The translations under genes were made by a program, and so were the position numbers. This document shows positions 5,742 to 54,623 of a DNA stretch of 64,000 bases, piece by piece (within the stretch, counting starts at the first letter, position 1; each line of letters begins with the position of its first letter). The stretch lies in the IMG/VR virus record IMGVR_UViG_3300023208_000399; one strand, given 5' to 3'. The DNA comes from an uncultured virus (IMG/VR IMGVR_UViG_3300023208_000399) (lineage: Duplodnaviria; Heunggongvirae; Uroviricota; Caudoviricetes). The notes beneath the pieces are model-generated. The model was not told the DNA's origin, did not search any database, and was given only the letters and a program-made list of their open reading frames with translations.

Positions 5742-5761
5742 ATACCGCTCCTTTGTCTGGA

Positions 5762-9700: not shown

Positions 9701-9710
9701 GGATCAGTCC

Positions 9711-10349: not shown

Positions 10350-10350
10350 C

Positions 10351-13448: not shown

Positions 13449-13476
13449 GAAGCCTCCTTGTGGAGGCTGTAGCCTC

Positions 13477-13818
13477 CTACGGTAGGTCGCGCCCCGCCCA
13501 GTTGTTGCCCAGTTTCTCCCGACACCATCCGTCCAACGCCGCGCTCATCACCGGTCGGCCGTCGTCAACGATCAGGGTCTTGCTGTCTTCGCGGTAGACA
13601 AGATCGGCGCCCGCTCGTCTGGCGCACACCGCTCGTTCGCGGATGCCTTCGACAATCACCGCGTCGGTTAGGGAGGAACCCGCTGCTGCGCGAGCCGCCG
13701 CAAAGAGGTCAGCGTCGTGGTCGAGGGGCGCCGATGAGCGGAAGTATTGATTGTAGGCGCAGGGAGCGACGACGAAGAGCAGAAGCGCAGCAAGCGCGAT
13801 ATTGCGAAGGGTCTTCAT
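13477..13818 (-). CDS. Hypothetical exported/membrane protein inserted before the TMP
   Basis: N-terminal signal/TM; RBS AGGAGG; classic moron slot. Confidence 0.6.
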   Translation of the reverse strand: MKTLRNIALAALLLFVVAPCAYNQYFRSSAPLDHDADLFAAARAAAGSSLTDAVIVEGIRERAVCARRAGADLVYREDSKTLIVDDGRPVMSAALDGWCREKLGNNWAGRDLP

Positions 13819-13835
13819 GGCTCGTCCTCCTGAGC

Positions 13836-14069
13836 CTAAGACCTAGCCGCTTTCACCGCTCGTTCAAATGCCTCTATGGACGGGGCGCCGGCCTTCTCCT
13901 CGACACCCTGCGCCTTGCGCCAGCCCCGATGCGCCTCGCTTAGCTGCCAGAGACTGCTTTCGCGGACCTCTTTCGGGGAGAGTCCGATTTGCGCACCAGC
14001 GGCGTAGAGTCCTGCGAAGCGGATTTTTCGGCGGGGGAGGGGTCTTTCGCCCCCGCTTGTTGCTCCCCC
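13836..14069 (-). CDS. Tail assembly chaperone -1 frameshift extension (gpT-like)
   Basis: -1 frame KIRFAGLYAAGAQIGLSPKEVRESSLWQL; candidate slip site GGGGGAG at 14069-14063. Confidence 0.6.
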   Translation of the reverse strand, partial: GGATSGGERPLPRRKIRFAGLYAAGAQIGLSPKEVRESSLWQLSEAHRGWRKAQGVEEKAGAPSIEAFERAVKAARS

Positions 14070-14395
14070 GACGGGGTGTCCTCGTCGGGAGCGCCGACCA
14101 GGGCCGCGGCGAGGATGCCGAGGACGAGCGGCTTCAGCGAAGCCAGATAGCCCTCCGCAGCATATCGGGCCTGCATAGCCAAAGCGCGCATCGGGTCCAT
14201 ACCGCCACGGATCAAGCCGATGCGAATGGGCTCCCTTAGGTCGGCGATGCGCCAGTTGCCGTTTGAGACCCGGTGATAAAGCTCTTCGGGTCCGGCGTCG
14301 GTCTTCTCCTGCAACTCCTCCAGACCGCCGATGTCGAGGACGAAATCGTAGACTCCGTCCCCGAACGGAGCCCGGTACTTGGCGCTGCGGCTCAT
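13940..14395 (-). CDS. Tail assembly chaperone (GTA-gp10-like, gpG)
   Basis: LEELQEKTDAGP and IRIGLIRGGM motifs; follows the tail tube gene. Confidence 0.8.
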   Translation of the reverse strand: MSRSAKYRAPFGDGVYDFVLDIGGLEELQEKTDAGPEELYHRVSNGNWRIADLREPIRIGLIRGGMDPMRALAMQARYAAEGYLASLKPLVLGILAAALVGAPDEDTPSGEQQAGAKDPSPAEKSASQDSTPLVRKSDSPRKRSAKAVSGS

Positions 14396-14829
14396 CAGGC
14401 GCCGGCCGTGATGGTCGGCTCGTCGGCCTGGACCAGAGTGACCGAGGCCGTGGCGTATTCACGGGCATTTCCGGTGATCGAGAACTCGGTCAGGATGTAG
14501 GGGCCGGCGATCTGGAAGGAGCCGGCCTTGCGGACGCGGCAGTTGATCGTTTGACCTACGCGGTTCAACCAGGCCAGCACCGACGCGGAATGCAGGAGGC
14601 CTTCGCCGCTGATCGTGCTGTCGGTCGAGTCCGTGCGCCGCATGGTCTTGGGCGGCTTGGACGGATCGGTGCAGTTGGGGATCTGCTGATCGGTCGTGGT
14701 CGCCGTGCGGTTGAACCCGCGCGAGCCGTTGATCATGCAGTCATGGGCGAAGACCTCGGGGTCCGCACCGTCGCCGAGCTGGACGAGGATTTCCTCGCCC
14801 GAGACGACGCTCACGAAAACGTCCGACAT
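14395..14829 (-). CDS. Major tail tube protein
   Basis: LGDGADPEVF, ISGEG motifs; position. Confidence 0.85.
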   Translation of the reverse strand: MSDVFVSVVSGEEILVQLGDGADPEVFAHDCMINGSRGFNRTATTTDQQIPNCTDPSKPPKTMRRTDSTDSTISGEGLLHSASVLAWLNRVGQTINCRVRKAGSFQIAGPYILTEFSITGNAREYATASVTLVQADEPTITAGA

Positions 14830-14889
14830 TCGGATGCCTTTCTCTGTCGAAGAAACCCCCGAGGGGGCGGGATGGCCCGCAGGGCGGGA

Positions 14890-15312
14890 TCAGGCGGCCT
14901 TCTTCAGGCCGTAGCGCAGGCGAAGGAGGGCGCGGCTGGTGAGGCCGTCCTGCTCGCGCTGATAGGACAGGCGCTCGACCCGGTGCGTCACCACCTCGAA
15001 GCCTGCGACGGCGAGTTTGGTGTTCAGCAGGGCCGCAGCGCGAGCGCCGATGCGCTTCACCTCCGGATAGCCGACCTCTCGGGACCACCCGTTCAGGTCG
15101 ATAAAGCAGTCAGAGGGGCCGACGCAGGCCGTACCTTCATCGGTCGTATCGGCTGAGCCGAAACTCAGGTACGGAAACGGCCCTTGCGGAATGCCGTCCA
15201 CATTGACCGGAACGCGGTCGAAGATGCGACCGGCGATCAGGGTGTCTAGCTCTGCGTCGGCCTTGACCGCCGCGACGATGGCGGCCTGAAGCGGAAGCTG
15301 CGGGTCGATCAT
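14890..15312 (-). CDS. DUF3168 tail terminator
   Basis: LQAAIVAA...RIFDRVP...FPYLSFG. Confidence 0.85.
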   Translation of the reverse strand: MIDPQLPLQAAIVAAVKADAELDTLIAGRIFDRVPVNVDGIPQGPFPYLSFGSADTTDEGTACVGPSDCFIDLNGWSREVGYPEVKRIGARAAALLNTKLAVAGFEVVTHRVERLSYQREQDGLTSRALLRLRYGLKKAA

Positions 15313-15728
15313 CGGGCGGCCTCCGCCTTGATGGCGCGGCGCATGGCGTTGGCGATCCGGCGCTTCACCTTGCGCTGATTTGCCCGAACCACTGGATAGA
15401 ACGAAGGGCTGGCCTCGACGTGTCGGCCGTTGGCGGCAAGGTGTCCAAGCTCGACACGCGGCGCCTTCGGGCGGCCCTTCGCATCCTTCGCGTCGCTGAT
15501 CACGACATAAGACACTTCGCCAAGGCGGCCCTCTTCGACGTGGATATGGTCGCGGACCTGTTCTCCGTTGTTCGGATCGTCATCCCGAGGTGCGATCCGG
15601 CGCATCTGGGCCGCCATCTCCTCTGCTTGAAGAAAGGCCTCCTGGCCCGCCGCCTTGCGGACGGCTGGGGTCATGGCCGACAGCTTGCGGGTCAGACGTT
15701 CGACGCCTTCAAGGCCGCCCTTAGCCAT
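15309..15728 (-). CDS. HK97-gp10-like tail component
   Basis: VELGH...PSFYP motif; position. Confidence 0.8.
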   Translation of the reverse strand: MAKGGLEGVERLTRKLSAMTPAVRKAAGQEAFLQAEEMAAQMRRIAPRDDDPNNGEQVRDHIHVEEGRLGEVSYVVISDAKDAKGRPKAPRVELGHLAANGRHVEASPSFYPVVRANQRKVKRRIANAMRRAIKAEAAR

Positions 15729-16080
15729 CGGCGCCTCCTGACACGGCCTGAATCAGCAACCACGTTCGGTCGCCGTCCATGTCGCCGATGAACCCGATAT
15801 TGAAGGTGCGCGAGGTGTCCCGCTGGTCCACCATTCGGTCGCCGGTCTGGAGCGAGCGGGTGCCGCTGTCTGACCTGACCCAGCAATCCCACTGCACACG
15901 CCCCGAGAGGCGGTCGGATTGCACCGCCTCGCTGCCCCGCGTGGGAAGCAGGCTCGCCGCGCGGCTGATCCCCAAGGGCTCCCAGCCCTGGACCGGGTTT
16001 CCGTAGGCATCCGACCCCTCGGCCCGACGCTCGAAATAGACCCGCTGGCGCAGATCGCCCGCACCCTTAGGCTTCGGCAT
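15721..16080 (-). CDS. Head-tail adaptor (head closure)
   Basis: AGDLRQRVYF...DAYGN motif. Confidence 0.8.
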   Translation of the reverse strand: MPKPKGAGDLRQRVYFERRAEGSDAYGNPVQGWEPLGISRAASLLPTRGSEAVQSDRLSGRVQWDCWVRSDSGTRSLQTGDRMVDQRDTSRTFNIGFIGDMDGDRTWLLIQAVSGGADG

Positions 16081-16312
16081 CGGTATGCTTCGCCTTCGGG
16101 AGTGAGCCGCCCTTTCGTCCGTCCTGGTCATGGTCCAGCGGGTCGGAGGCCACCTCCTCGCCAGCGCCAGCCTGGACCGCCGCCTCACCACACTCGCGCT
16201 TGACGGTGTAGATGCCGTCCTTGTTTGCGCCACCGGCAGCGCGATAGGCGATCAGCACGCGCGGCTCTTCGGACGGAATGTAGTCGAACGATTCAGTGAA
16301 GCGGACGCGCAT
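16067..16312 (-). CDS. Hypothetical phage protein
   Basis: Coupled ORF in the head-tail region. Confidence 0.6.
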   Translation of the reverse strand: MRVRFTESFDYIPSEEPRVLIAYRAAGGANKDGIYTVKRECGEAAVQAGAGEEVASDPLDHDQDGRKGGSLPKAKHTDAEA

Positions 16313-16322
16313 GGCGATCTCC

Positions 16323-16622
16323 TCAGACCCGAAGCCAGCGGTACGGGTCGATCAGGTTTCGGATCGGCGATCCATCAGACAGCACCGGCTCGCGATTCGC
16401 GTAGAGATCGCCGAGCGCCAGCAGCGCGGCGGCCTTGAAGGCCGCGACAGCGGCGCCGCCAGGCACAAGCGCGAGGTTGCAGTATTGCAGCACACGGCTG
16501 ACTGCGGCATCCGCGTAAGTGCTGATCAAGGCGTCGTCGTCACTATGATCGACGCGCAGATGTTCCTTGGCCTCTTCGAGGGTGAACAGCGGGCCGGTCT
16601 CGGTGACGACGACGTTGAGCAT
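16323..16622 (-). CDS. Head-tail connector (gp6-like)
   Basis: TLEEAKEHLRVD..DDALI; LYANRE; LIDPYR. Confidence 0.9.
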   Translation of the reverse strand: MLNVVVTETGPLFTLEEAKEHLRVDHSDDDALISTYADAAVSRVLQYCNLALVPGGAAVAAFKAAALLALGDLYANREPVLSDGSPIRNLIDPYRWLRV

Positions 16623-16625
16623 GGG

Positions 16626-16943
16626 TCAGTCCTTCGTGGCTTCGGTCTTGCCGTAGACCGACATATCCAGTCCCTGGCCGGCAAAGCCATCTTCCGAGGG
16701 ATGGCGGCGAACCGGATCATTGAAATCGCCGCCGTTCTGCACGGCCGAGGTGCCCGCGCGCGGGTTGTTCTCGACCGAAGGGTGTTCGACCGGTATCGCT
16801 GCCTTGATCTCCGGCTCGATGAACGCACCCGAGGCCGAGTCCATCTCGGTCGCCGGATCCGGGTTCTCGACCGCCATGGTCTCGGGCAAGCGGCCCTCGG
16901 ATTTGGCGGGTTCGGCCGCAGGGGCCTTCTCAATCTTGGCCAT
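16626..16943 (-). CDS. Hypothetical acidic protein after the capsid gene
   Basis: Strong RBS AAGGAGG; ORF fits the gap. Confidence 0.6.
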   Translation of the reverse strand: MAKIEKAPAAEPAKSEGRLPETMAVENPDPATEMDSASGAFIEPEIKAAIPVEHPSVENNPRAGTSAVQNGGDFNDPVRRHPSEDGFAGQGLDMSVYGKTEATKD

Positions 16944-17009
16944 AACGGCCTCCTTTTTCAGATGGATGGTCCCCGGCTTGCCAGGAAGGACGGCGCGCAT
17001 CCGCCCTGG

Positions 17010-17040
17010 AAAGCCGGGCCGGGATCTAACCCGGCCCGGT
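17010..17040 (-). terminator. Terminator hairpin after the major capsid gene
   Basis: CCGGGCCGGG-TTAGAT-CCCGGCCCGG then CTTT. Confidence 0.6.
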
Positions 17041-17056
17041 GACCTCAGATGGCCGC

Positions 17057-18274
17057 TTAGGAAGCGGCCATCTTCAGGGCCTTAATGGCCTCCGGGTTCT
17101 GTACGCCGCCGCCAACGCGCTTCGTGGTGTAAAACATCACGTAGGGCTTATTGGAGTACGGGTCGCGAAGGACGCGGACGCCAGTGCGATCGACGATCAG
17201 ATAGCCCCGGCGGAAATCGCCGAAAGCGATCGGTACGGCGCCGGCCGCCATGTTCGGCATCGCCGCCATTTCCGTCACCGGATAGCCCAGGAGTTGGGCC
17301 GGCTGGCCCGCCTGCAGCGAGGGCTGCCAGATGTAGTTGCCGTCGCCGTCCTTCAGCTTCCGAACCTTCGACAGGCTGTTGCGGTTGGTGACGAAACGCG
17401 CGTTCTGCGCGAGCACACCCGGCAGGCTGTAGACCAGGTCTATCAGCTCGTCGGTCGTAACCGCCGCAGCAGCGGCGGCCGTGGTGACCTGGATCGCGCC
17501 CAGGGGATTGTCGGCGGCGTTGGCGGCGCCGGTGACGTAGGTCAGGAAGCCCTTGGGCTTGTTTGTGCCGTTGCCGGACACGAAGGCCAGGCCCTCCTGG
17601 TAGGCGAACTCGGTCTCGACCTCGTTGGCCAGCCAGGCCTCCAGGTTGACCTCCGCGTCGTCCAGCAGTTGCTGGGTCGCTGCGGGGTTCGCGTACAACT
17701 CGCCCGGGACGAAGGTCTGCGCGCCGAACTCCGGAGTCGCAGTCTCCGGACGGGCGGCAGTTTCACCGACCCAGCCGGAACCGGTACCGTGCAGATTGTA
17801 CAGCTTCTTGAAGCCGGCGCTCGACACGGTCTGCACGGTCGCGATCTGGCGCATGGGCGAGACCTCGATCAGCTTGTCGGTGATCGTGCGGTCCCACTCG
17901 ATGGGGGCCAGATAGCCGCCCTCATCGTCGGCGCCCTTGTTCAGGGACGCCTCGACGGAGCCTTTGCGGAAGTGCGCCTGAAAGGCCGAGGTGTACTCGG
18001 CGTCACGCGGTGCGTCCTTGTTGGCGGCGCCGGCCGCGATCTTGGCGTTCAGATCGTCGATCGTCGCCTGGAAACCGTCGATAGCGGCGTCGAGGCGCTG
18101 GACCTTCTCGTCCAGGATCACGTCCGCCTTGGCCTTCAGCTTCTCGTCGTTCGTTTTCTTGAACTCTTCGAAGGCGGCCTGCAGTTGGCCGATCATAGTC
18201 TTAGGGTCGGTGACGTCGGCGCGCACGCCGCCGCACAGGGCGCGCGGAGCTGCGCCCAGCAGATGGGTCTTCAT
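17057..18274 (-). CDS. Major capsid protein, HK97 fold
   Basis: EGGYLAP, F..GNGTNKPKG, LKDGDGNYIWQP, FGDF, KRVGG. Confidence 0.95.
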   Translation of the reverse strand: MKTHLLGAAPRALCGGVRADVTDPKTMIGQLQAAFEEFKKTNDEKLKAKADVILDEKVQRLDAAIDGFQATIDDLNAKIAAGAANKDAPRDAEYTSAFQAHFRKGSVEASLNKGADDEGGYLAPIEWDRTITDKLIEVSPMRQIATVQTVSSAGFKKLYNLHGTGSGWVGETAARPETATPEFGAQTFVPGELYANPAATQQLLDDAEVNLEAWLANEVETEFAYQEGLAFVSGNGTNKPKGFLTYVTGAANAADNPLGAIQVTTAAAAAAVTTDELIDLVYSLPGVLAQNARFVTNRNSLSKVRKLKDGDGNYIWQPSLQAGQPAQLLGYPVTEMAAMPNMAAGAVPIAFGDFRRGYLIVDRTGVRVLRDPYSNKPYVMFYTTKRVGGGVQNPEAIKALKMAAS

Positions 18275-18295
18275 GATGATATCTCCTGACGCGCC

Positions 18296-19180
18296 TTAGG
18301 CGCGGATGGTGGCAAGCAAGTCGGCCATGGAAGCCGACAGTTCGTGGTCGCCAGCGCCCGGCGTGGCGTCGTCATCAGGGGCAGCGCCAGGCGTGCCCTT
18401 GATCTTGCTGATGCGGTCGCGCGCCTGGGTGCGCGTCATGCCCGCACGGACGAGGTCAAGCTCCGCGGCGCGGAGCTCGTTGACCCGGCGATCTTCCGCC
18501 TTGGCTTTCTCGTCGGTTGTGGTCTTGTCGGCTGGCAGCAGAGCGTCGGCGAACCCGCGCTCGATCGCCTGCGAGCCTGACATGAAGGTCTCGGCGTCCA
18601 TCCAGGCCGCGATCTGGTCCGCCTTCTGTCCCGAACGGGCGGCATAGACTTCGACCATGGCAGCGTCGAACGGGTCAAGGAACTCAGCGGTCTCGCGCAT
18701 GTCGTGCCGGTTCCCCATCGCGAGAACCCAGCAGTTGTGGATCATCAGGAAGGAAGCCGCCCCGATCTCGATCTTGTCGCCGGCCATGGCGATAATCGAG
18801 GCGGCGGAGGCGGCCATCCCCATGACCTTGACCGTGATCTCCTGCGGGTGCTCGCGCAGGACATTGTAGATCGCGATCCCCTCGAACATGTCGCCGCCCG
18901 GCGAGTTGATCTGGACCTCGACGGGCCGGTCTCCGATGGCGCGAAGCTGCTGCGAAACCTTCTTCGCCGTGATCCCGCCGCCGGACCAGAAGTCCTCGCC
19001 GATCACATCGAACATGGTGACGACGTTGTCGCCCCGCTCCAGGGCGCGCACGCCCGCCGCGTCTTCCGACCATTTGTCGAAGACCTGGGGCTTCGTGAAT
19101 GCCGCCACGTCACGGCGCGCGGGGAGGGGCATGGCCCCCGGACGCGCCTTGGCAAAAACCCGCAGATTACGCTGGCGCAT
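18296..19180 (-). CDS. Head maturation protease, ClpP-like (S14)
   Basis: INSPGGDMFEG, GMAASAAS, MIHN. Confidence 0.92.
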   Translation of the reverse strand: MRQRNLRVFAKARPGAMPLPARRDVAAFTKPQVFDKWSEDAAGVRALERGDNVVTMFDVIGEDFWSGGGITAKKVSQQLRAIGDRPVEVQINSPGGDMFEGIAIYNVLREHPQEITVKVMGMAASAASIIAMAGDKIEIGAASFLMIHNCWVLAMGNRHDMRETAEFLDPFDAAMVEVYAARSGQKADQIAAWMDAETFMSGSQAIERGFADALLPADKTTTDEKAKAEDRRVNELRAAELDLVRAGMTRTQARDRISKIKGTPGAAPDDDATPGAGDHELSASMADLLATIRA

Positions 19181-20453
19181 CGCCGCCTCCGTTTTCTTCG
19201 GGCGAGGGCGAGCCGCCCTGATTGCCCTTGCTGATCGCGTTGCTGGCCGGATCGGTGTCGTCCGGCATGTCGTTGAGGCGACGCACCTCGTTCGGGCTCA
19301 TCCATCCCGGCTGACCACCGGCACCCAAGGCCTTCGCGAAGAAGTCGCCCTGATCTTTCGTCGAGCCGCGAAGCAGAGCCCCAGGATTGAACTTGACAGC
19401 GTACCGATCCTTCTCCGCCCCGGTTAGGAGTGACCGCTCGGCGGCCTGCTGCCAGGCCTCAAACCAGGGGTTCAGGGCGTACTGGACGAAAAACTGGCCC
19501 AGCGCCTGGATGCCTGAGCCCCAGCTGGTCTCATCGACCATCAGGAGCGGGCGCGGCACACCGGTCACGCGGGCGATTTCCTCGACCTGCATCTTCCGCA
19601 GCTCGGTCAGCTGCGAATCCCGCGCGTTCTGCGACAGGGCGATGTAATCCATGCCCTCTTCGAGAATCAGGTTCTTGCCGGCGTTCTCCGCGCCCTCCTT
19701 GTCGGCGAGCGAGCTCTTCAGACGTTCGAAGGCTGGATCCGACAACTTGCCGGGATGCTTCAGGGCGCCGCCGACAAACGAGCCGTTCTTGAACAGTCTA
19801 CCGGCCGCCAGTTCGGCACTAAGCGCCAAACCGATCGCATCACGCGCCTGCTTGACCAGCGACATGCCACAGATGCCGTCGAGCGACAGGCCGCGCAGAT
19901 GGAAAACCTCCTCCGGCCGCAGTGTGCGTAGGGCGCCGTTCTTCGGCTGGTATCGGTAGCTGACGCTCCAGTCGTCGTTCTGGACCGGCGTCACCAGATC
20001 GGGGTCGAGAGGCACGAGCCGGATAATCTCGTCGCGACCGGTTCGGATCTGTCGCGACCGGATAATCAGCGCATAGGCATTGCCCTTCACCAGGGCCCGC
20101 AGCTGCATCAGCGATCGGAAGTCGAACGCCGTTTGCCAGTTGTTCGGCTCCCGATGCAGAATGCGGAACAGCGGGTGATCCGCCTTCTCCTTCGTCTCGT
20201 CGTCGATGACGTGAAGCGGCAGCATGCCAATCGCGTAGGAGATCAGGCTGACCGCCCGGAACATGGCCGGGTTGCGCAGCGCGGTCTGCGTGCTGACCCG
20301 GGCGCCCGAGGCGGCCTCGTAGCCGTCGCGCATGAACTCCAGCAAAAACGGGTCGTTCAGCGAGTAGGCCATGAAGGCGTCGCCGTGAGGCTGGCGCGCC
20401 GTCATGGCGGACTCTGGCTTTGCGCCAAAACCTAGCAGGCGGGCAAAGTTCAT
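19167..20453 (-). CDS. Portal protein, HK97 family
   Basis: LHREPNNWQT, GNAYA, EEIARVTGVP, NEVR. Confidence 0.95.
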   Translation of the reverse strand: MNFARLLGFGAKPESAMTARQPHGDAFMAYSLNDPFLLEFMRDGYEAASGARVSTQTALRNPAMFRAVSLISYAIGMLPLHVIDDETKEKADHPLFRILHREPNNWQTAFDFRSLMQLRALVKGNAYALIIRSRQIRTGRDEIIRLVPLDPDLVTPVQNDDWSVSYRYQPKNGALRTLRPEEVFHLRGLSLDGICGMSLVKQARDAIGLALSAELAAGRLFKNGSFVGGALKHPGKLSDPAFERLKSSLADKEGAENAGKNLILEEGMDYIALSQNARDSQLTELRKMQVEEIARVTGVPRPLLMVDETSWGSGIQALGQFFVQYALNPWFEAWQQAAERSLLTGAEKDRYAVKFNPGALLRGSTKDQGDFFAKALGAGGQPGWMSPNEVRRLNDMPDDTDPASNAISKGNQGGSPSPEENGGGDAPA

Positions 20454-20463
20454 TCCGCCTCCC

Positions 20464-22143
20464 TCAGACCATCAGAAGGCCCCGCGCCTCGTAGACGCTC
20501 GGCCCCGTCGCCATGGGCTTGCGCGCCATCAGCATCATCGCGTTGAACGCCGCCACGAGCGGGTCGATCTTTGCCCGGCCGGCCGACTGTTTGGTGATGA
20601 TCACCGCGCCGCCTCGGACCTCGACCTTCGCGTTGCCGACACACCAGGCCATCATCCGCTGACCGCCATGCTTCAGCGATCCGTTCTTCAGCTTGATCTC
20701 CGCGCCCCAGGAGGCCGGCGAGAGCGCAAATCCCTGTCGAATCGCGACCTGCTGTCCCGGCGCGATTCCGCGCGCCTCCAGCTCATCGACGAGCGCGGCG
20801 ACGCCGATTGGGTCGATCCCCACGCCCTCAGACTCGGGCAGCAGGGAAGCCTCCTTGACCCGTTCGATGTAGGCCGCAGCCTCCATGATTGGGGCCATCG
20901 GATCTTCGCTGATCGTCAGGTCGCCATCGCCTTCGAAGTCCTTCAGCCGGCTTGCGATGTCCGCGCGGCGCTTAAGCACGTCGTCGTGCGCCCAGGCATG
21001 GGTCCAGAGCAGCCACTTCTGCGTTTCCCTGCACCGGCCCAGCACCGCCAGACCGAACAAGTCGTCCAGGCCGCCGCCGTCGATGCCAATCGTGCAGACC
21101 TCCGAACGCGCCAGGACCTCTTCGAGGGTCAGGCTCTTGTCTGTCGCCGCTTCCCAATAGTCGGCGCCGGCCCAGCGGTTGTTCGCCAGCTTCAACCCGA
21201 TCTCGACGTTCAGGTGCTTGGCGAGGAAAACCTGCCTTTCGCCCCCGGTCGCGTTCTCGACCTTGCGAAGCTCAGCCTCCAGCCACTCCTGATCGACCGA
21301 CCGGCCCAGATTCGGGTTGGTGATGTAGAAGTTTTCCGGCCGCAGGAAGGCCTCGGCCTCCACCATCTGCTCTGGAAACTCATAGATGACGGGAAGGGAG
21401 CGCTGATCCGCGATCTTACCGTCCCGAACGTCGCGGAAATAGTCGAGCTTGGTCTTGAAAACCCCCGCCGGCTCTTCGTCCGACTGCGTGCTGGCCCAGA
21501 TGATGAAGCCCTCGGGCCTAGAGACCGTGCCGCCCGTGGCCTCTCGAAGCATCGCGTCAGCCTTGGCGCGTTTTCCGAAGACCCACAGCTCGTCGATGAA
21601 GATGTGGCCGGCCTTCTTGCCGGACACCGTGTCCGTGTCGGCCGCCACGACCTTCAGCATGGCGCCGTTGTCGCGGTGCGTGATCGTCCTGATATGATCC
21701 TGGACGTGGAAGAGGTCTTCCAACTCCTCGTCCGCCTTCACCATGTCCCGCGCGGGCTTGTAGGCGTTCTGGGCGACCTCGATTGTCGGCGCTAGGATCA
21801 GCAGCTCCGCCGAATGGCGCCAGTTCCGGATGAGCGCCGTGAGCATGATGCCCGCCGCAATGGTGGACTTCGAGTTCTTCTTGCTGATGAGCAGGAAGAA
21901 CTCCTTGATCAGACGCCGGCCGCTTACTGCGTCATAGGCGCCGAAGATGGCCGATACGAAATCGAACACCCACTGCTCACAGGCCTCGCCGAAAGTCGGT
22001 TGACGCGGCGCATCCACGATGCGGAGCGACTTGAAGACCTCCAGCGCCTCTCGCGCTTCGTCCCTGAACAGCGGCGACGGGATAAGGGACCGCTTGGCGA
22101 CGATCCGGTCTCTCCAGTCGACGCAGGCTGTCGACCACTCCAC
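20464..22143 (-). CDS. terL: Terminase large subunit
   Basis: SKKNSKST Walker A, IFIDE Walker [14 protein letters not shown]. Confidence 0.95.
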
Positions 22144-22146
22144 CGG

Positions 22147-22719
22147 TTACTGCACCAGCCGAATAGGCGGCGGGGGCGAAGCGAAGCGGCTGCTGCTTTT
22201 TGCGACCCGCTGTCCGGCCTCCTGGCGCTGTTTCTTGACGCCCTGGGGGGCTCCCGCTTCCGCCAACGTCTTTGCCGCCGTCGCCAGCGCCTTAAGAACA
22301 TCGGATCTGGTCTTCAGCGACACCGCCTGCATCAGGGCGGCGCGCTGCCCGCTGGCGTCGGCCTCGTCGGTTGACGAAACGATCAGTGACTCTAGCTCGC
22401 CTTGTCGGCTCGTGGTGGCGTCCAGCTCGTCCATCATCCGCATGACGAGGTTCCGACCTCGACCGACGATTGCCTCGGGCGTCGTGTTCTCAGGGGTCAG
22501 GACAGTGCCGATGTAAACTTTCTCGGGCTCCGGGTGCGCGGCCTCAGCCTGCGCACCATCCTGCGAACTCGGGCGCTCCCATCCGTCCTTCTTGGCGCGC
22601 TTTCGGATCGCCGCTTCTGTGATCCCGTACCAGCGGGCAATCTCGCGCACAGACATCTTGCTCGTGCGGTAGTCGCGCTCGATCTCAGCCCAATCGACGG
22701 GCTTTTTTTCATCCGCCAT
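22147..22719 (-). CDS. terS: Terminase small subunit
   Basis: N-terminal HTH (DWAEIERDYR...IRKRAKKDGW); upstream of terL. Confidence 0.8.
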   Translation of the reverse strand: MADEKKPVDWAEIERDYRTSKMSVREIARWYGITEAAIRKRAKKDGWERPSSQDGAQAEAAHPEPEKVYIGTVLTPENTTPEAIVGRGRNLVMRMMDELDATTSRQGELESLIVSSTDEADASGQRAALMQAVSLKTRSDVLKALATAAKTLAEAGAPQGVKKQRQEAGQRVAKSSSRFASPPPPIRLVQ

Positions 22720-42278: not shown

Positions 42279-42466
42279 CCGTGCCAAGCGCGCCAAATGG
42301 CTCGTTTTTGGCACGGGTGGCACGGTTTCAGCGGGGAAATCTGGCCCTTGGCACGGTTTCCCCGCTCTCCATTTTCGTAAACGAAATCAACATCGTGCCG
42401 CATGGTTTGGCACGGTTGGCACGATTTTCAGGCCCGCGCTGATGGGCTTGGCACGGTCTGGCACGG
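42279..42466. repeat. TGGCACGG repeat array, putative arm-type sites of element 2
   Basis: Direct copies at 42309, 42318, 42349, 42408, 42417 (TGGCACGA), 42449, 42459; inverted copy at 42279. Confidence 0.7.
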
Positions 42467-45469: not shown

Positions 45470-45612
45470 CGGTTGGCCTCCCCGATCAGTTCGTCGAGGT
45501 AGGGGCGCACCAAATCCCAGACCGGCGGACCTTTCTCGGCGTAGAGTTCGGCCATGCGCTGACGCACCAGAGCGACGATGCGCTCGTGCTGTTCGTCTTT
45601 GGTCACGTCCAT
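45466..45612 (-). CDS. Hypothetical protein (48 aa)
   Basis: Coupled to the HNH stop. Confidence 0.5.
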   Translation of the reverse strand: MDVTKDEQHERIVALVRQRMAELYAEKGPPVWDLVRPYLDELIGEANR

Positions 45613-46118
45613 CAAGCGACCCTCGTGACGGTCCAAGAACCGTCGTCGTTGGCGGCCTTGGCGAGGTTGAAGCTTCGCTCGCCACGTCGGCTCGCCGCCC
45701 AGACTTGCCGCTGAATGCTGGCGCGGATGAGTGGGCTGGATGTGAAAGTCTGGCCGACTTCCAGAATATCCCAAGGGTAGATGAAAGGGCGCCCGCCTCT
45801 GTTCACTCCCATCGCATGGCTATCGCGAAGGTTCTCTGATCGCGTGGCGTAGCGCAGGTTCGACGGTCGGTTGTCGGTCTTGATGCAGTTGCCGTGCGCG
45901 ATGTCCAAACCTTCCGGGCGCGGGCCGTGGAATGTCAGGGCGATCAGACTGTGGACCGTGCGGGTCTTGGTTTTTGGGTCATGGTCGAGCTTCACGCCGA
46001 CCAGATGATACCCGAGGGGGTGATTGAAGGGCTTGAGAATATTGCCCTTCGGGCCGCGAATGCGGCCGAGGCTGGACGCCTCATACTTTGAGTTCGGAAT
46101 CTGTTTCCATAGCTCCAT
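45612..46118 (-). CDS. NUMOD4-HNH endonuclease
   Basis: WKQIP...YEASSLGRIR; VH.L.A.TF.G; H.N....DNR..NL. Confidence 0.88.
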   Translation of the reverse strand: MELWKQIPNSKYEASSLGRIRGPKGNILKPFNHPLGYHLVGVKLDHDPKTKTRTVHSLIALTFHGPRPEGLDIAHGNCIKTDNRPSNLRYATRSENLRDSHAMGVNRGGRPFIYPWDILEVGQTFTSSPLIRASIQRQVWAASRRGERSFNLAKAANDDGSWTVTRVA

Positions 46119-46132
46119 TGTTGTCACCAAAC

Positions 46133-46271
46133 GAAAAAGGCCCCACCGATGAGCAAGATCGGCAGGGCCTCTTTCTGGAAACGAACAAGCTGTTCAGACT
46201 ATGCGCGCGTTTCAAACATCGGCCCGATCCGCGACTTGCTCTCGCCGGAACGGTTGTGATGTTATTTAGTC
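46133..46271 (-). promoter_or_regulatory. Structured leader/attenuator, copy 1 (GACTAAATA + kissing-loop hairpins)
   Basis: Loops GAGCAAG and CTTGCTC; last hairpin followed by TTTTT. Confidence 0.6.
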
Positions 46272-46392
46272 AGCGACGCGGGAAACGCTGTCGGGAGGTT
46301 AATCGCGCGCTGGCCTCATTTCGAACCACCGACGCAAGGAACTGACCCGCTTAGCTGTGCTTTTATGTGTCTCACCCAACGGAGATATGGTT

Positions 46393-46893
46393 ATGGCCGA
46401 GAAAACACTCGACACTCTGTTCCACGACACCCTGAAGGATATCTATTACGCTGAGCGGAAAATCCTGAAGTCGCTCCCCAAGATGGCTCGCGCCGCCCAG
46501 TCGCCCGAACTGAAGGCCGCGTTCGAGAAGCACAAGGATCAAACTGAGGGGCAGATCGAACGTCTGCAACAGGTGTTTGAGATCATCGGGAAGGCTCCGC
46601 GAGGAAAGACGTGCGACGCCATCGAAGGCATTCTCGCCGAGGGCGATGAGATCATGGAGGAATATAAGGATAATCCTGCCATGGATGCGGGTCTGCTGGC
46701 CGCCGCGCAAGCAGTCGAACACTACGAAATTACCCGATACGGCACTCTGCGACGCTGGGCGAACGTGCTGGGCCTAACTGACGCAGCCGCTTTGCTCGAA
46801 GAGACCTTGAATGAAGAGTCCCAAACCGATGAAGACCTCACGGCCATTGCAGACGCCGCCGTTAACGCTGAAGCGATGAAGAAGTCCGCCTGA
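46393..46893 (+). CDS. yciF: YciF/DUF892 ferritin-like stress protein
   Basis: LKDIYYAE, H..QTE.Q..RL, QAVEHYEI.RYGTL. Confidence 0.9.
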   Translation: MAEKTLDTLFHDTLKDIYYAERKILKSLPKMARAAQSPELKAAFEKHKDQTEGQIERLQQVFEIIGKAPRGKTCDAIEGILAEGDEIMEEYKDNPAMDAGLLAAAQAVEHYEITRYGTLRRWANVLGLTDAAALLEETLNEESQTDEDLTAIADAAVNAEAMKKSA

Positions 46894-46951
46894 TTCGTAA
46901 GGAACTCGCGTCATCAACCGGTGTTGAACGAAGGCGAAGCAAACTATCTGT

Positions 46952-46980
46952 AGCGGTGACCTCGGTCACCGCTCTTTTTT
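46952..46980 (+). terminator. Strong intrinsic terminator
   Basis: AGCGGTGAC-CTCG-GTCACCGCT + CTTTTTT. Confidence 0.85.
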
Positions 46981-47046
46981 GGGTCGCCATCCTTCACAGG
47001 GTGATGCACCGACCCGATCCGCCCTCGACTACCGCGCCGCAACCAC

Positions 47047-47249
47047 CGCTCCCTCTATTAGAGAAATGGTTTGGCGCCGACGAGGAACGAGGCGGGGGCA
47101 AGCCTATGTCCCTATTGTTGGGCGAACCGTCAGGTGATGCTCTCTATTAGAGGGAACCGACCAAAGCCGTATTCGCCGAGGGGTGCTCCCTCTATTAATA
47201 TATTAGTATTAGGGGGTATTAATAGAGGGAGCATCACTCCCGGCGAATA
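47047..47249. repeat. Region with CTCTATTA repeats and a perfect 17-bp inverted repeat around an AT-rich loop
   Basis: TGCTCCCTCTATTAATA 47184-47200 / 47217-47233; outer stem TATTCGCCG/CGGCGAATA. Confidence 0.75.
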
Positions 47250-47250
47250 G

Positions 47251-47910
47251 TTAAAGCGAAACCGGCTCGCCCGTGGACCAGTGATCCAGAGTGTCGGCCG
47301 ACGATGACCGCGAATGCAGGATGCCGTTGCTCTTGAGCGGCTTGCCCTTGGCGTCCAGCTTGTCGAACGGTGCCAGCCAGAAGTGGGCGTTCGGCGAATA
47401 GACCATGGCCGTGTTTGCTTCGATGTCGATCCAGACGACGTGCTGATCGTTGTAGGTGGACCCCATGCCCGCGCCGGTGTGCATGAAGACGCCAACAAAG
47501 CCGGAGCCTTGACCGGCCAAAGCCTCGACCACGGCGAGCGTCGCTTCGGAGAACTTCGCCTTCGATTTCTTCGCCGTCTTCACGGCGACATCGTGCGGCC
47601 AGAGCGTCGCCGTCCCTTTCCAGTTCGGACGCTTCCAGTTGGGATGGTCGCCCATGTAGGTTTGCAGTGTGATCTTGTGCCGGAACTTCGGTTCAGGCCC
47701 ATTGTCGAAGACCGTCGCCTCAAGGGCCAAGATCGTCTCCAACGCTGGCAGGGGCGTCACGACCGATGCGCGGACCTTGTGCTGACGGTCGGCGATCCGC
47801 TCGCACCACGCCACGAAGTCAGGGTTCTTGTAGAGAGCAGAGTTGAGAAGGGCATTGTCTTGCCCGAGAAAATCAAGTTCAGCCACGACGGCGGCAAAAG
47901 GGTTGTCCAT
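47251..47910 (-). CDS. Hypothetical protein (219 aa)
   Basis: Long ORF downstream of leader copy 2. Confidence 0.7.
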   Translation of the reverse strand: MDNPFAAVVAELDFLGQDNALLNSALYKNPDFVAWCERIADRQHKVRASVVTPLPALETILALEATVFDNGPEPKFRHKITLQTYMGDHPNWKRPNWKGTATLWPHDVAVKTAKKSKAKFSEATLAVVEALAGQGSGFVGVFMHTGAGMGSTYNDQHVVWIDIEANTAMVYSPNAHFWLAPFDKLDAKGKPLKSNGILHSRSSSADTLDHWSTGEPVSL

Positions 47911-47917
47911 AATAATC

Positions 47918-48078
47918 CAAAAACAAGAGGCCCCACGATGTGCAAGATCGCAGGGCCTTAAGTTTTCGGATTTGGTGATAGAATCGAGTATACGATACTA
48001 TCCATATTTATCCAATATCTAACGGCCCTGTTTGCACGTCTTGCACACGGCGAAACAGGTTATGAAACATATTTAGTC
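47918..48078 (-). promoter_or_regulatory. Structured leader/attenuator, copy 2
   Basis: Loops GTGCAAG and CTTGCAC; last hairpin followed by CTTGTTTTT. Confidence 0.6.
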
Positions 48079-48114
48079 GGATGTGCTGGATGGCCGCCAT
48101 ATATTTCGTAAGTC

Positions 48115-48561
48115 TCATGATGGAATGTCGGCTTGTCGTGCGTGACCCTCAACGGTGTAAGCTCTGAACTCCGACATCTCCTTGCAGAACAGCAGAAGGG
48201 TCTGTGCGAAGTTCATCCCGACCATCCCCTGACTAAATGTCACGCAATAGGTCAGGAAGTAGCCATCAGACATCGGAATAGCCGGGCCGATAAGCTTGAT
48301 TGAATTGTTCCAGTCGTTGGCCAGCCTTAACTGGCCCATTTGCCCGAGGTCGATCTCGCCCATGATGCGGACGTAGTGGCCGTCAGAGCCAATCACGATG
48401 TGAAAGGACACTTCGGATTCAAAGCCCGGATACAAAACGCTGCATCTAACTGCGTTTTGTTTCACCTTGGGGAGATATTCTATGACTGCTGTGATTGCCG
48501 ATCTTCTGGCGATGCTCACGATATAATCGAGCGTCGGTTTGTCTTGAATCTTATCAAGCAT
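48115..48561 (-). CDS. YbjN-like domain protein
   Basis: Size and LANDWN motif; paired with the upstream gene. Confidence 0.5.
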   Translation of the reverse strand: MLDKIQDKPTLDYIVSIARRSAITAVIEYLPKVKQNAVRCSVLYPGFESEVSFHIVIGSDGHYVRIMGEIDLGQMGQLRLANDWNNSIKLIGPAIPMSDGYFLTYCVTFSQGMVGMNFAQTLLLFCKEMSEFRAYTVEGHARQADIPS

Positions 48562-48985
48562 TGCGGGGCACCGCGATGTCAGACCGGTCTAAACCTACAT
48601 GCTGAACGAATAAACCGACGCGCTCTGGCCATCTTTTGGCGATGGCTTGAGCGTTTCGGGTTAACAGACCGCCGGAGGAAATCAGAGCATAGGTCAGCAT
48701 ATATTTGTCCTGACCCTCGATGTAGGACGCGCTACAGAACGCCTTATTGATGTTCCAAGATGCGATTTTGTCGAAATCGACGCCAAGCCTCGCACTCACC
48801 GTGGTCACAAAGGTGTAGGCTTCCGGCGAAACCCCGACGACAAACGTGAGGCCCGCTTCTTGGACCAACAGGTGCGGAGGTGTCGGCCCGCCTGTGCGGA
48901 GGTCGGCAGTCATTCCACCTTTCCGCAAAGCTTGCTGAAAATCGGCAGCGGTTTTGATGATCTTGTTCGGATTGAAAAAGGACAC
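48554..48985 (-). CDS. YbjN-like domain protein
   Basis: IASWN....F..A...L.Y.L...GG pattern. Confidence 0.55.
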   Translation of the reverse strand: MSFFNPNKIIKTAADFQQALRKGGMTADLRTGGPTPPHLLVQEAGLTFVVGVSPEAYTFVTTVSARLGVDFDKIASWNINKAFCSASYIEGQDKYMLTYALISSGGLLTRNAQAIAKRWPERVGLFVQHVGLDRSDIAVPRNA

Positions 48986-49913: not shown

Positions 49914-51332
49914 TCAGGCGAAGAACTCCGCATCATGGTCGCCCCAAACATGGGCGTAGTCGGCGCGTAGCTCACGCTCCAGAGCCGCCAGCAACATCGC
50001 TTCCGATACCGGGTGCATGTTGTCGCTGCTATCCCAAGCAGGAACCGCAACATCATCGAAATATCCGGCCTCCCAAGCCATCATCGCGGCCCGCTCCAGC
50101 GACACGCCATCGGCCCGGACAAGCTTGCGGCGGAAAGGCGCCTCGCGATGCCAGCGGTCGAGGTCACGGGCCTTTAGCTCCCCGCCATCGTCGCAGATGC
50201 CCCGGAGGCTCAAGAACTCGCAAAGCGACGGGTCGCGTCGGGGATGGAATGGGCGGGAGGCACTAATGCCTCCCCCTGCAAACGCCGTCAGCTTGGACAG
50301 GAACCCGGCGGCGACATCGGTCGAGACCGGCGGACGCTTGGGCGCGACAGGCGGCGTCGGGTCTGTGTCGTCATCGTCTCCATGGGACTCGATTTCCGCC
50401 GCGCTGGAGCCTCCCGACAGGTCAGGGAGATAGATGACGCCATCGGCCATCCAAGGCTGCTCTACGGCCTGTTTTGGGGCCTTATTGGCGAGGTCGAAAA
50501 GGTAGTCACACGCGGCTTGAGCCTTGCTCGCCGCCGTGAAGATCGCGCGCTTGTCCTGACGTAGAACCTTAAGCCATGACGCCAGATAGGACGCATGATC
50601 CTCGCGAGGCTCAACCGCGATCCCAAGGCGAGCCATCGCGAAGGCGGCGCCCATTTCGGCGACCAGTTCCTCAAACGCATACTCCTTATCGCCGAACCGC
50701 TTCCCAAACTGGCGATCAAGCCGGGCCTTGGCTCCGCTCCAGTGCGTCAGTTCATGGGCGAGCGTCGCGTAATAGGCTTCGTGTTCATAGAACGCCTCTA
50801 AAGGCGGCATTTGGACGTGATCGGACTTGGGCGAGAAGAAAGCCTTTGATCCGCCATGCCTGATTTCGGCGCCAGTTCCGACCGCCCATTGATCCGCGAG
50901 CTTGATGCGTTCAGCCGTCGCAGCGACAGGCGCGGCCTCATAGAAGCGTTCGGGCAAATGGTCGATTTGCTCGACGTTGAAAACCGCGTAGCCCTTGGCA
51001 AACAGCCGGGTTTCCTCCTCGCCGGTTTCATCCTCTTTCGAATACGATCCCCAATAGATTACCGGCGACGACTTCTCCCCTTTGCGGACGCATCCCCCAA
51101 CCTCTTTGGCCTGATTGAAGGTCATCCAAGTGTGGTGACGATAGCCCTTCATCTCGGCCGCGCCCCAAAGCAGGGCGACGTTGATCCCGCGATACGCCTC
51201 GCCGTTAGCGCGGGTCGGGATCGCCGGAAGGCCGCACGATCCGGCCTCCCATTGCGGCGCCCAAGGGCGGACCCCGTCTTCCAACATGGCGACGATTGAG
51301 TCCGTGACGGTTTGGTAGATGTCGGCTTTCAT
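49914..51332 (-). CDS. ardC: ArdC-family antirestriction protein (ssDNA-binding + zincin-like) with a C-terminal extension
   Basis: IYQ.VTD.I...LE.G..PW, YRGIN, W.TF.Q, VRKGEK, VFNVEQ, HELTHW, YAFEELVAE. Confidence 0.92.
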   Translation of the reverse strand: MKADIYQTVTDSIVAMLEDGVRPWAPQWEAGSCGLPAIPTRANGEAYRGINVALLWGAAEMKGYRHHTWMTFNQAKEVGGCVRKGEKSSPVIYWGSYSKEDETGEEETRLFAKGYAVFNVEQIDHLPERFYEAAPVAATAERIKLADQWAVGTGAEIRHGGSKAFFSPKSDHVQMPPLEAFYEHEAYYATLAHELTHWSGAKARLDRQFGKRFGDKEYAFEELVAEMGAAFAMARLGIAVEPREDHASYLASWLKVLRQDKRAIFTAASKAQAACDYLFDLANKAPKQAVEQPWMADGVIYLPDLSGGSSAAEIESHGDDDDTDPTPPVAPKRPPVSTDVAAGFLSKLTAFAGGGISASRPFHPRRDPSLCEFLSLRGICDDGGELKARDLDRWHREAPFRRKLVRADGVSLERAAMMAWEAGYFDDVAVPAWDSSDNMHPVSEAMLLAALERELRADYAHVWGDHDAEFFA

Positions 51333-53852: not shown

Positions 53853-54191
53853 TTAGCGCGTCAGGAACTGTCGAAGCATAGCTGCGACAGCATCGCTCTG
53901 CTTCTGATTCAACTGCGACCACAGTTTCAAAATGGCTCGTTCCGAGGGTGATTGCCCTGTTAAGACGGGATCGCCGTAGAGGTCGGCTACGCTGCATCTC
54001 AAAGCACCTGCGACTTGCAACAGCGTTGAAGCAGCAACTCGATTTGCTCCGCGCTCATATTTCTGAACTTGCTGGAACGAGACGCCAATAGCCTCCCCAA
54101 GTTCTGACTGAGTAAGGCCCAGAGCTACGCGCCGGTCGCGTATTGTTTTGCCGATTTGAGTATCGACAGGCGAAAGGGTGATGCGAGACAT
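53853..54191 (-). CDS. XRE-family transcriptional regulator
   Basis: GLTQSELGEAIGVSFQQVQKYERGANRV. Confidence 0.9.
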   Translation of the reverse strand: MSRITLSPVDTQIGKTIRDRRVALGLTQSELGEAIGVSFQQVQKYERGANRVAASTLLQVAGALRCSVADLYGDPVLTGQSPSERAILKLWSQLNQKQSDAVAAMLRQFLTR

Positions 54192-54354
54192 GATCCGTAT
54201 GTATGCCGATTCCAGCACTAAAGTCGCTGCATTCGATACCTTGGCATATTGGTCGCAGCAACTTCGAAAGCTTTCGTCACAAGCGTAGTGGCGAATTGGC
54301 GATTGATATGGGACTGGAATTTTTGGCCAACCTGAAGCTTTAATGGCCGCCGTT

Positions 54355-54573: not shown

Positions 54574-54623
54574 GTGACGTTCTGGCCGGGCATTAGTCGG
54601 ATCGCCGCTGACTAAATATCAGC

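Follow-up and report, generated by a model that had tools for sequence, protein, structure and literature searches.

Two leaders with complementary hairpin loops in a Brevundimonas prophage suggest a self-pairing RNA switch

The 64,000-nucleotide stretch of IMG/VR virus record IMGVR_UViG_3300023208_000399 (the window, meaning this whole stretch) carries on its minus strand two copies of an RNA leader element. Copy 1 (c1) lies in front of a gene coding for an HNH/NUMOD4 endonuclease and copy 2 (c2) in front of a gene coding for a 219-amino acid protein, with start codons at 46118 (ATG) and 47910, respectively. Both copies follow the same order: a conserved box GACTAAATA, a first hairpin (H1), a middle hairpin, a hairpin (T) with a stem of 12 base pairs (bp) and a loop of 7 nucleotides (nt), a U-rich tail and the start codon (Table 1). 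This common minus-strand architecture had been described in an earlier note on the same DNA, and verification of both leaders found every string and position given there to be correct. In each copy the loop of H1 is exactly complementary to the loop of T, and the same holds in every relative found, which points to a putative built-in RNA switch for gene expression.

Judged by gene content, the leaders sit in a temperate T7-like podovirus prophage of Brevundimonas. The nearest record (G001), a 47.5-kb IMG/VR prophage, covers window positions 38365-64000 and beyond. It carries genes coding for an integrase, a single-subunit T7-type RNA polymerase (phrog_414, E 2e-237) and a large terminase, together with T7-like structural genes (portal, capsid, tail-tube and internal virion proteins). 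The T7-type polymerase is also present in 3 of 3 close relatives tested, and the named hosts of relatives are Brevundimonas. Pfam/PHROG-type scans gave no match to DNA polymerase, primase or helicase families among the G001 open reading frames (ORFs) scanned.

Table 1. Positions of the leader elements, partner genes and palindrome array in the window.
Feature	Position	Strand	Remarks
c1 leader	46271-46116	-	precedes the HNH/NUMOD4 gene
c1 5' box GACTAAATA	46271-46263	-	promoter element or RNA 5' end as alternatives
c1 H1	46224..46253	-	loop GAGCAAG 46241-46235; based on folds
c1 segment X	46221..46241	-	H1 loop, H1 3' arm and GGGCC; candidate antiterminator strand pairing with T 5' arm and loop
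c1 middle hairpin GAAACG...GAACAgcuUGUUCGUUUC	46178..46213	-	sequence unrelated to the c2 middle region
c1 hairpin T	46129..46169	-	5' arm 46169-46158, loop CTTGCTC 46157-46151, 3' arm 46150-46139, U-tract 46138-46129
HNH/NUMOD4 endonuclease gene	45612..46118	-	Pfam HNH_3 2.6e-14, NUMOD4 2.2e-05; PHROG HNH families
c2 leader	48078-47908	-	precedes the 219-amino acid gene
c2 5' box GACTAAATA	48078-48070	-	from sequence
c2 H1	48027..48059	-	outer stem CCUGUUU/AAACAGG, inner stem CGU/ACG, loop GTGCAAG 48046-48040
c2 segment X	48046-48024	-	
c2 second box GGATAAATA	48005..48013	-	overlaps -35 (TGGATA) of a sigma-70-like match
c2 middle hairpin	47977..48002	-	conserved loop UAUACU, the -10 of the promoter-like match
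c2 hairpin T with extension	47914..47972	-	5' arm 47958-47947, loop CTTGCAC 47946-47940, 3' arm 47939-47928, U-tract 47927-47919
c2 T extension stem	AAUCCGAAAAC 47972-47962 / GUUUUUGGAUU 47924-47914	-	covers Shine-Dalgarno GGA 47918-47916
219-amino acid gene	47251..47910	-	constant partner of c2-type leaders
Palindrome array CCCTCTA(A/T)TA / TA(A/T)TAGAGGG	47045..47247	-	directly after the 219-amino acid gene

The H1 loops GAGCAAG (c1) and GTGCAAG (c2) are the exact reverse complements of the T loops CTTGCTC and CTTGCAC. The core pattern shared by the two T hairpins occurs twice in the window and in 0 of 100 shuffles. Since 7-nt inverted repeats spaced by 40-140 nt are common in this DNA (878 of 63,850 window positions), the window alone is weak proof, and the significance comes from the relatives. 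Leaders were collected from IMG/VR prophage records, two Brevundimonas genomes, three metagenome contigs and Caulobacteraceae genomes by protein-guided and pattern-guided searches. Already in the first alignment all homologues had complementary loops of differing sequence. Over 14 leaders the seven loop-loop pairs were 95.9% paired, the misses coming solely from a one-column shift introduced by MAFFT in L009, and three of the pairs changed on both sides; 0 of 500 shuffles reached the observed values and slid controls dropped to 39-51% paired. Within the 13 c2-type leaders the loop-loop helix was 100% paired. All loop pairs are Watson-Crick pairs, with no G-U.

Two scans of the viral collection used patterns built from the box and H1 side alone, which makes the T loop an independent prediction. 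In the first scan a matching T loop followed 84-101 nt downstream in 8 of 8 family hits and in 0 of 8 chance hits; in the second, 6 of 6 family hits had the matching loop and 0 of 3 chance hits did. A census blind to complementarity found the full 7-nt match in 17 of 17 distinct leaders; it missed L064, an L007-type c1 leader and one c1 variant, and these were checked by eye. The consensus is G-NNN-AAG for the H1 loop and CUU-NNN-C for the T loop, and nine central triplets were observed (UGC, UGG, AGG, AGC, AGU, GUC, GGC, AUG and GAC). Loop-loop pairing potential, its conservation and its covariation are confirmed by these observations. The complementarity stated in the earlier note extends to every relative found; the covariation, proposed there from a single A-U to U-A swap, goes far beyond it, and the complementarity is not confined to the loops. 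As a side observation, the H1 loop heptamer of c2 is directly repeated in the H1 3' arm (GUGCAAG-AC-GUGCAAA, 48046-48031) and the AGG lineage has GAGGAAG-AC-GAGGAAC at the equivalent positions (L005, L008), so that the triplet is written three times in those two lineages.

Hairpin T keeps U-G and G-U pairs on the minus strand only, and six of its stem pairs are changed on both sides among 14 leaders, in agreement with RNAalifold. The stem of the c2 middle hairpin also co-varies, with 5 of 9 pairs changed on both sides in 13 c2-type leaders. Together with the U-tract and the ribosome-binding site, these features argue for an RNA-level element on this strand. RNAalifold applied to the mixed c1 and c2 alignment recovered T alone because MAFFT misaligns H1. 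In the c2-type alignment the outer and inner helices of H1 are 88% and 85% paired, and an alignment-based count gave 98% for the T helix and 80% for its extension. Compared with shuffles, the folds of the window leaders are more stable, with z-scores of -3.0 (c1) and -5.8 (c2). Relatives of c1 have in addition a stem of 6-7 bp which encloses H1 and begins directly after TAAATA (AACAUC/GAUGUU in the window). Its outermost pair is C-G in L007, G-C in L009 and A-U in L010, and this variation as pairs suggests that the RNA starts at or before the base after TAAATA.

In sequence and predicted structure, T fits the definition of an intrinsic (Rho-independent) terminator in both c1 and c2, in line with the terminator-like 3' hairpin described in the earlier note. 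The c2 hairpin (47958-47928) was called terminator-like by a scan, with 12 pairs, 7 of them G-C, a loop of 7 and the tail CTTGTTTTTG. The c1 hairpin was not listed by the terminator scan, and its 12-bp stem, 7-nt loop and tail UUUUUCGUUU were identified from sequence and fold; in L064 the tail is weak (UAUUACUUC). The base of T is extended by pairing between an anti-Shine-Dalgarno segment and the Shine-Dalgarno region, with AAUCC in c2, AAUCCUGU/ACAGGAUU in L043 and UCCUUGCU/AGCAAAGGA in L064. As these extension stems differ in sequence, a Shine-Dalgarno trap appears to be kept with different sequences. The flanks of T pair further in c1 also, covering the Shine-Dalgarno GGUGA (46128-46124) up to the ATG, and the same flank pairing is found in c1 leaders generally.

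On balance, we lean slightly towards the view that each copy forms the 5' leader of its phage gene and acts as a four-segment RNA switch, for which we infer from the sequences a stop of transcription at T, the formation of a 2:3 helix in vivo and a trigger. Segment 1 would be the 5' arm of H1, segment 2 (X) the H1 loop with the H1 3' arm and the GGGCC block, segment 3 the 5' arm of T with its 7-nt loop, and segment 4 the 3' arm of T, followed by the U-tract. In the OFF state H1 (1:2) and T (3:4) would form and RNA polymerase would halt after about 125-150 nt, and in RNA that reads through, the extended base of T would hide the Shine-Dalgarno region. In the ON state X would pair with segment 3 (2:3), removing T and loosening the Shine-Dalgarno trap. 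The 7-nt loops would serve as a fast nucleation site, by kissing or as a toehold, choosing the fold during RNA synthesis, and from their kissing contact strand exchange would spread into the inner stem of H1, which is weak. They are the natural candidates for nucleation because they are the only part of the 2:3 helix left single-stranded once H1 has formed. Candidate triggers are the speed of the polymerase, a protein bound to the conserved 5' box and a short terminated RNA acting in trans.

Folding with ViennaRNA is consistent with such a switch. When the RNA is cut just before the 3' arm of T, the long-range helix between X and segment 3 is the minimum-energy fold in 16 of 16 leaders. It comprises the seven loop pairs and a run of 2-4 pairs with one bulged base, in which the ACG or UCG that opens the H1 3' arm meets CGA of the T 5' arm. 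Past an internal loop the helix resumes with 5-8 additional pairs (GGGCC:GGCCC, in c2 CAGGGCC:GGCCCUG). The duplexes have energies between -20.7 and -32.2 kcal/mol, and the corresponding shuffles average between -11.9 and -18.5; the c1 duplex of the window has -24.5 kcal/mol (shuffle mean -16.1) and is also found in the nascent-RNA fold. A fold in which the loops may not pair is less stable by 1.6-10.5 kcal/mol in each of the 14 leaders tested. Among the 13 c2 leaders the extended 2:3 helix is 96% paired and its second helix 92%, and the latter is retained in L043 and L064 with different sequences. Because AAACAGG of the H1 outer stem overlaps CAGGGCC of the 2:3 helix, the long-range helix excludes both H1 and T, and the leaders thus have, in silico, the alternative 1:2, 2:3 and 3:4 helices of a four-segment attenuator. 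This arrangement explains at once the complementarity over the whole loop, its continuation into the stems and the overlap of the H1 stem with the GGGCC block.

Several points weigh against a switch of this kind. Outside the loops the 2:3 helix rests mainly on conservation, with 2 further pairs changed on both sides, and in two of the 13 c2 leaders (L004 and L142) the 3-bp extension is broken, the strands pairing in a different register. Duplex energies as low as those observed also turn up now and then among mononucleotide shuffles, and for c1 leaders the calculation puts the full-length T state ahead by 4.3-11.4 kcal/mol. Since ViennaRNA ignores pseudoknots, a stable fold made of H1, T and kissing loops without switching would be compatible with these calculations. 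A conserved leader peptide was not found: the sole ORF, 20 codons in the c2 leader of the window, lacks its ATG in L003, L004 and L005. For box 1, neither a promoter scan nor inspection by eye, for sigma-70 and Caulobacter-type promoters, gave a convincing or consistent -35 element. Finally, metatranscriptome-run contigs (four RNA runs) lie mainly over a DUF892 gene region (46382-47169), the best-covered part of the locus; these contigs are unstranded, with a depth of 2.5-25 and possible DNA carry-over, and starts, ends and read-through cannot be read from them.

The 20-codon ORF runs from 48069 to 48007 on the minus strand, with its ATG inside the c2 box region, through H1 and to a stop which is the TAA of the second box; it is probably no leader peptide, as the start codon is missing in the three leaders named above. 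Between c1 and c2 no shared aptamer was found: the interval from H1 to T is entirely different and only the box, H1 and T are common to both, so that the leaders do not qualify as riboswitches.

The conserved 5' box may act as a promoter element or be bound by a protein. Its TAAATA does not vary among the aligned leaders and is followed by CAUAACC-like bases. The 47.5-kb prophage has only three GACTAAATA sites, none of them before structural genes. Use of the box as a T7-type phage RNA polymerase promoter was considered and rejected, given the three sites, the variable base after the box and the presence of the module in siphovirus prophage fragments; in these HK97-type fragments, whose records are 28-30% complete, box and leader occur and no phage RNA polymerase was found. 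A 13-mer, CCCTACCTCGACG, present three times in the prophage, was likewise rejected as a promoter, having no shared flanks and lying inside coding sequence. A third GCTGACTAAATA copy, with 13 of 13 bases shared with c1, lies at 54602-54618 on the plus strand inside a GCTGA...TCAGC palindrome, between a 76-amino acid ORF and an ATG at 54624 and near a helix-turn-helix regulator gene (53853-54218, minus strand); no H1 or T was found behind it. In the c2-type leaders a second TAAATA box is always present 63-66 nt past the first, and in the window the promoter scan called a sigma-70-like match at 48014-47987 (TGGATA, a 16-nt spacer and TATACT).

Beside the cis switch, and compatible with it, riboregulation in trans is possible if doubtful. 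A short terminated leader, or a still shorter c2 RNA that would start at the internal promoter-like site and hold T only, would accumulate and bind nascent or read-through transcripts of the same address (the central triplet of the loops), from the same phage or an incoming relative, and set their termination or translation as feedback, immunity or incompatibility, in the manner of P4 CI, P1 c4 and Gifsy-1 IsrK. The architecture would yield a suitable short RNA, with a 5' hairpin, an A/U-rich stretch, a terminator and a U tail, as well as a read-through form with a hidden Shine-Dalgarno sequence. Internal promoter-like matches (TTGGAT-N17-TATAYT, TATAAT or TATGAT) were seen by eye in 11 of 14 distinct c2-type leaders, the scan calling that of the window only; such a match is missing from L043 and L209, and in L138 the -10 is only weak (TGCATT). 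Against this, c1 is without an internal promoter-like site. The triplets of c1 and c2 differ in 8 of 8 phages carrying both, which would suit separate addresses, but they are not markedly hypervariable and follow the leader phylogeny. Moreover, the two addresses of the window differ by a single base, with cross-duplex energies (-24.4 and -24.5 kcal/mol) nearly equal to those of the cognate pairs (-26.4 and -24.5 kcal/mol), and the cis partner is always nearer than any partner in trans. PMC4825925 describes such action for IsrK, and PMC12197685 places the specificity of P1 versus P7 in the c4 loops. A scan of 45500-48700 found no plus-strand promoter-like match facing either leader; the RNA contigs are unstranded.

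A rather unlikely alternative is static kissing, in which H1 and T stay folded and their loops form a 7-bp pseudoknot helix with no antiterminator switching. Such a contact might compact or stabilise the OFF fold or the short RNA, protect it from nucleases, or form a site for a protein or RNase III. Fully complementary 7-nt loops do kiss in ColE1 RNA I/RNA II; here the strongly co-varying long-range pairs are the seven loop pairs only, and both hairpins are present in the full-length minimum-energy folds. Covariation by itself is compatible with a static pseudoknot and with the alternative helix alike, and does not tell the two apart. Static kissing leaves unexplained both the conserved continuation into the H1 3' arm and GGGCC and the overlap of the H1 stem with that block, and the wholly different middle regions of c1 and c2 would limit a common scaffold to H1 and T.

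It is very improbable that the match has no pairing function at all and that H1 arose as an inverted copy of part of the T top, with quasi-palindrome correction (template switching) or recent common descent keeping the two matched. A single template switch could transfer a change between the arms, and the H1 inner stem and loop do resemble the reverse complement of the T top (CGU-loop-ACG compared with CGAU-loop-AUCG). Yet neighbouring positions of the same imperfect repeat are left uncorrected, all nine triplets are matched, and the match is perfect even where the partner proteins share 26-48% identity and where phage type and host GC content differ. Least probable of all is a DNA-level feature, with the 7-bp cores as the crossover or spacer of a site-specific inversion switch or as protein half-sites: identical spacers needed by partner recombination sites would also give perfect, covarying complementarity, the loop pairs are free of G-U and each core is flanked by inverted arms as in lox-type sites, but the arms of H1 and T are too unlike to be bound by one recombinase, the cores of c1 and c2 differ within one phage so that one protein cannot read both, the intervening segment is inverted in 0 of 17 distinct leaders, unlike an inverton, and T has strand-specific G-U pairs, also in its extension, with a U-tract and a Shine-Dalgarno sequence behind it.

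The two copies belong to one family. A covariance model built from c2-type leaders only found the c1 leader of the window with 60.5 bits (E 1e-10) and other c1 leaders with 36-68 bits, which makes c1 and c2 homologous, diverged paralogues; the model found no third copy in the window or in the prophage parts searched. The earlier note had not recognised the family, and had suggested such a model and a search of genomes and Rfam. In accordance with its impression, Rfam 15 gave 0 matches at gathering scores in the whole window, and at E<=10 over 45800-48400 only spurious microRNA- and small nucleolar RNA-like hits far below gathering. Rfam does hold phage antisense and leader families such as the c4/CI-type and IsrK. 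We file the leader as a new RNA family and a new variant of RNA attenuation, set apart from P4 CI, P1 c4 and IsrK by the lack of an Rfam match. A full-text literature search found no description of the element among the papers it listed, which is no proof of its being unpublished; subscription papers and supplements lay outside its scope.

The element is rare. The covariance model gave hits in 4 of 151 Brevundimonas genomes, with no new variants, and a pattern search of 401 Caulobacteraceae genomes matched in 98, nearly all by chance in G+C-rich DNA, with true sites in G002, G234, G324 and G398; none of the conclusions draws on the unpublished genome G028. A terminator-based pattern applied to viral contigs left, after filtering, L043, L064 and L100 as family members among the at least 120 matched stretches listed, and protein-guided scans added 2 loci from genomes and 3 from metagenomes. 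The c2-type leader always stands before a member of the 219-amino acid family, even at 26-48% protein identity (homologues in L043, L064, L142 and L209), including two HK97-type siphovirus prophage fragments of 49% and 58% G+C. The c1-type leader was found only in phages which also carry c2 (8 of 8) and precedes an HNH gene or, in two genomes, a 208-amino acid cysteine-rich gene. The HNH-led operon, presented in the earlier note as the partner of c1, is thus not fixed, these two genomes being Brevundimonas. Nor did its idea of copy-specific identity hold up well when taken as a selected feature: leaders more than 90% identical share triplets, the triplet columns have minor-allele counts of 3-4 of 11, and 20 of 177 other leader columns reach at least 4. 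Diversifying selection on the triplet was considered and finds no support past moderate variability that tracks leader phylogeny, and the case for selection for copy-specific identity is weak.

The 219-amino acid protein has no Pfam or PHROG match, and its 29 homologue clusters are all without names. Its AlphaFold model has a predicted local distance difference test score (pLDDT) of 86; Foldseek against PDB returned nothing at E<=0.001, a VIA wide search reached a Z of 5.8 at most, with generic beta-sheet matches, and there was no usable protein-atlas match. The array behind the gene includes two compact CTCTAATAGAG palindromes and an inverted repeat (47247-47172) whose arms, of about 33 nt each, enclose an AT-rich core. 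The CCCTCTA(A/T)TA motif occurs nowhere else in the 64-kb window and is found downstream of the homologous gene in 11 of 15 other loci, including an AT-richer siphovirus record; the palindrome hairpin gave spurious microRNA-like Rfam hits. From its sequence and position the array resembles a set of protein-binding sites (operator-, iteron- or origin-like) belonging to the same portable module.

Between the two leaders lies, on the opposite strand, a DUF892 (YciE/YciF-like) gene (46357-46893, plus strand). The RNA-run contigs over this region extend to about 47140-47169, adjoining the large palindrome, and one contig of 151 nt covers 46192-46342. Contigs from a relative cover part of c1 and 534 nt past T, as well as the 219-amino acid gene up to 47922, and positions 47923-48600 are without cover. 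Upstream of the leaders, in the same orientation, is a gene coding for an ArdC-N and zincin metallopeptidase (anti-restriction-like) protein (49914-51332, minus strand), and short tandem repeats with TGGCACGG (GAAACCGTGCCA three times on the other strand) are found at 42307-42430, downstream of the HNH-led genes. Outside the prophage, a second head-tail gene cluster at about 5000-22500 (minus strand), recognised by ORF sizes only (559, 428, 405, 837 and 1170 amino acids), may be gene-transfer-agent-like.

By its predicted mechanism the leader resembles several known systems and is, from sequence comparison, a homologue of none. In the CI RNA system of P4 immunity, according to PMC4825925, the untranslated leader of a phage operon holds internally complementary short sequences (seqA/seqC), whose pairing governs premature termination. 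Internal complementarity of a phage leader governing termination is the common feature; P4 CI, however, is a processed 69-nt RNA acting in trans on two targets and promoting termination, whereas here the complementarity joins the terminator loop to another hairpin loop of the same leader, and the pairing is predicted to oppose termination. In P1/P7 c4, according to PMC12197685, one transcript holds both regulator and target, in the same orientation, loops expose the bases that pair, and differences of a few bases give phage specificity. Unlike the present leader, in which the target is the terminator loop, c4 is processed from the transcript and blocks the ribosome-binding site of a downstream gene; the Rfam search showed no homology in sequence or structure, and the gene controlled here is not a recognised antirepressor. 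Gifsy-1 IsrK is a prophage leader ending in a terminator, with a read-through form made translationally inactive by alternative helices and with action in cis and in trans, the terminated form acting on its own read-through form (PMC4825925). IsrK differs in being a linear helix exchange with no match between a loop and the terminator loop, and it is no homologue: the region gave no Rfam hit either at gathering or, spurious ones apart, at E<=10.

The antisense-RNA control systems of plasmids offer a further parallel. In pT181, pIP501, ColE1 RNA I/II and IncI/IncB, kissing of loops over 6-7 nt nucleates the interaction and decides whether a terminator folds, or enables a pseudoknot near the ribosome-binding site, and single loop changes create new specificities. 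There, an opposite-strand countertranscript supplies one of the loops, whereas here both loops are on one leader strand and no countertranscript is evident from the promoter scan. Attenuators of the trp type have mutually exclusive 1:2, 2:3 and 3:4 helices and end in an intrinsic terminator; in contrast to them, the present leader is without a conserved leader peptide, and its predicted 2:3 helix takes in the terminator loop and would be nucleated from an exposed hairpin loop.

If the four-segment switch is correct, it would be a naturally occurring attenuator whose antiterminator takes in the loop of the terminator itself and uses a hairpin loop as its toehold, with specificity set by three freely exchangeable bases. 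We also entertain, as a speculation that we think improbable, that the switch is self-addressed and reprogrammable: the 3-nt address in the loops of H1 and T would make each leader answer to RNA of its own address, a short leader or T-only RNA being the trans effector, and would provide a portable module with RNA-only feedback, immunity or incompatibility. Such a module, made of the leader, the 219-amino acid protein and the CCCTCTA(A/T)TA array, may be an origin/initiator or antirepressor-type unit, and its strict regulation would suggest an important or harmful product. The leader family marks an unstudied three-part module of leader, 219-amino acid protein and palindrome array. A confirmed switch would be a compact addition to the RNA-only gating of genes by phages, its natural variants would form a set usable as orthogonal transcription regulators, and the family would supply a new Rfam-type entry for the annotation of temperate phages of Caulobacterales and other hosts.

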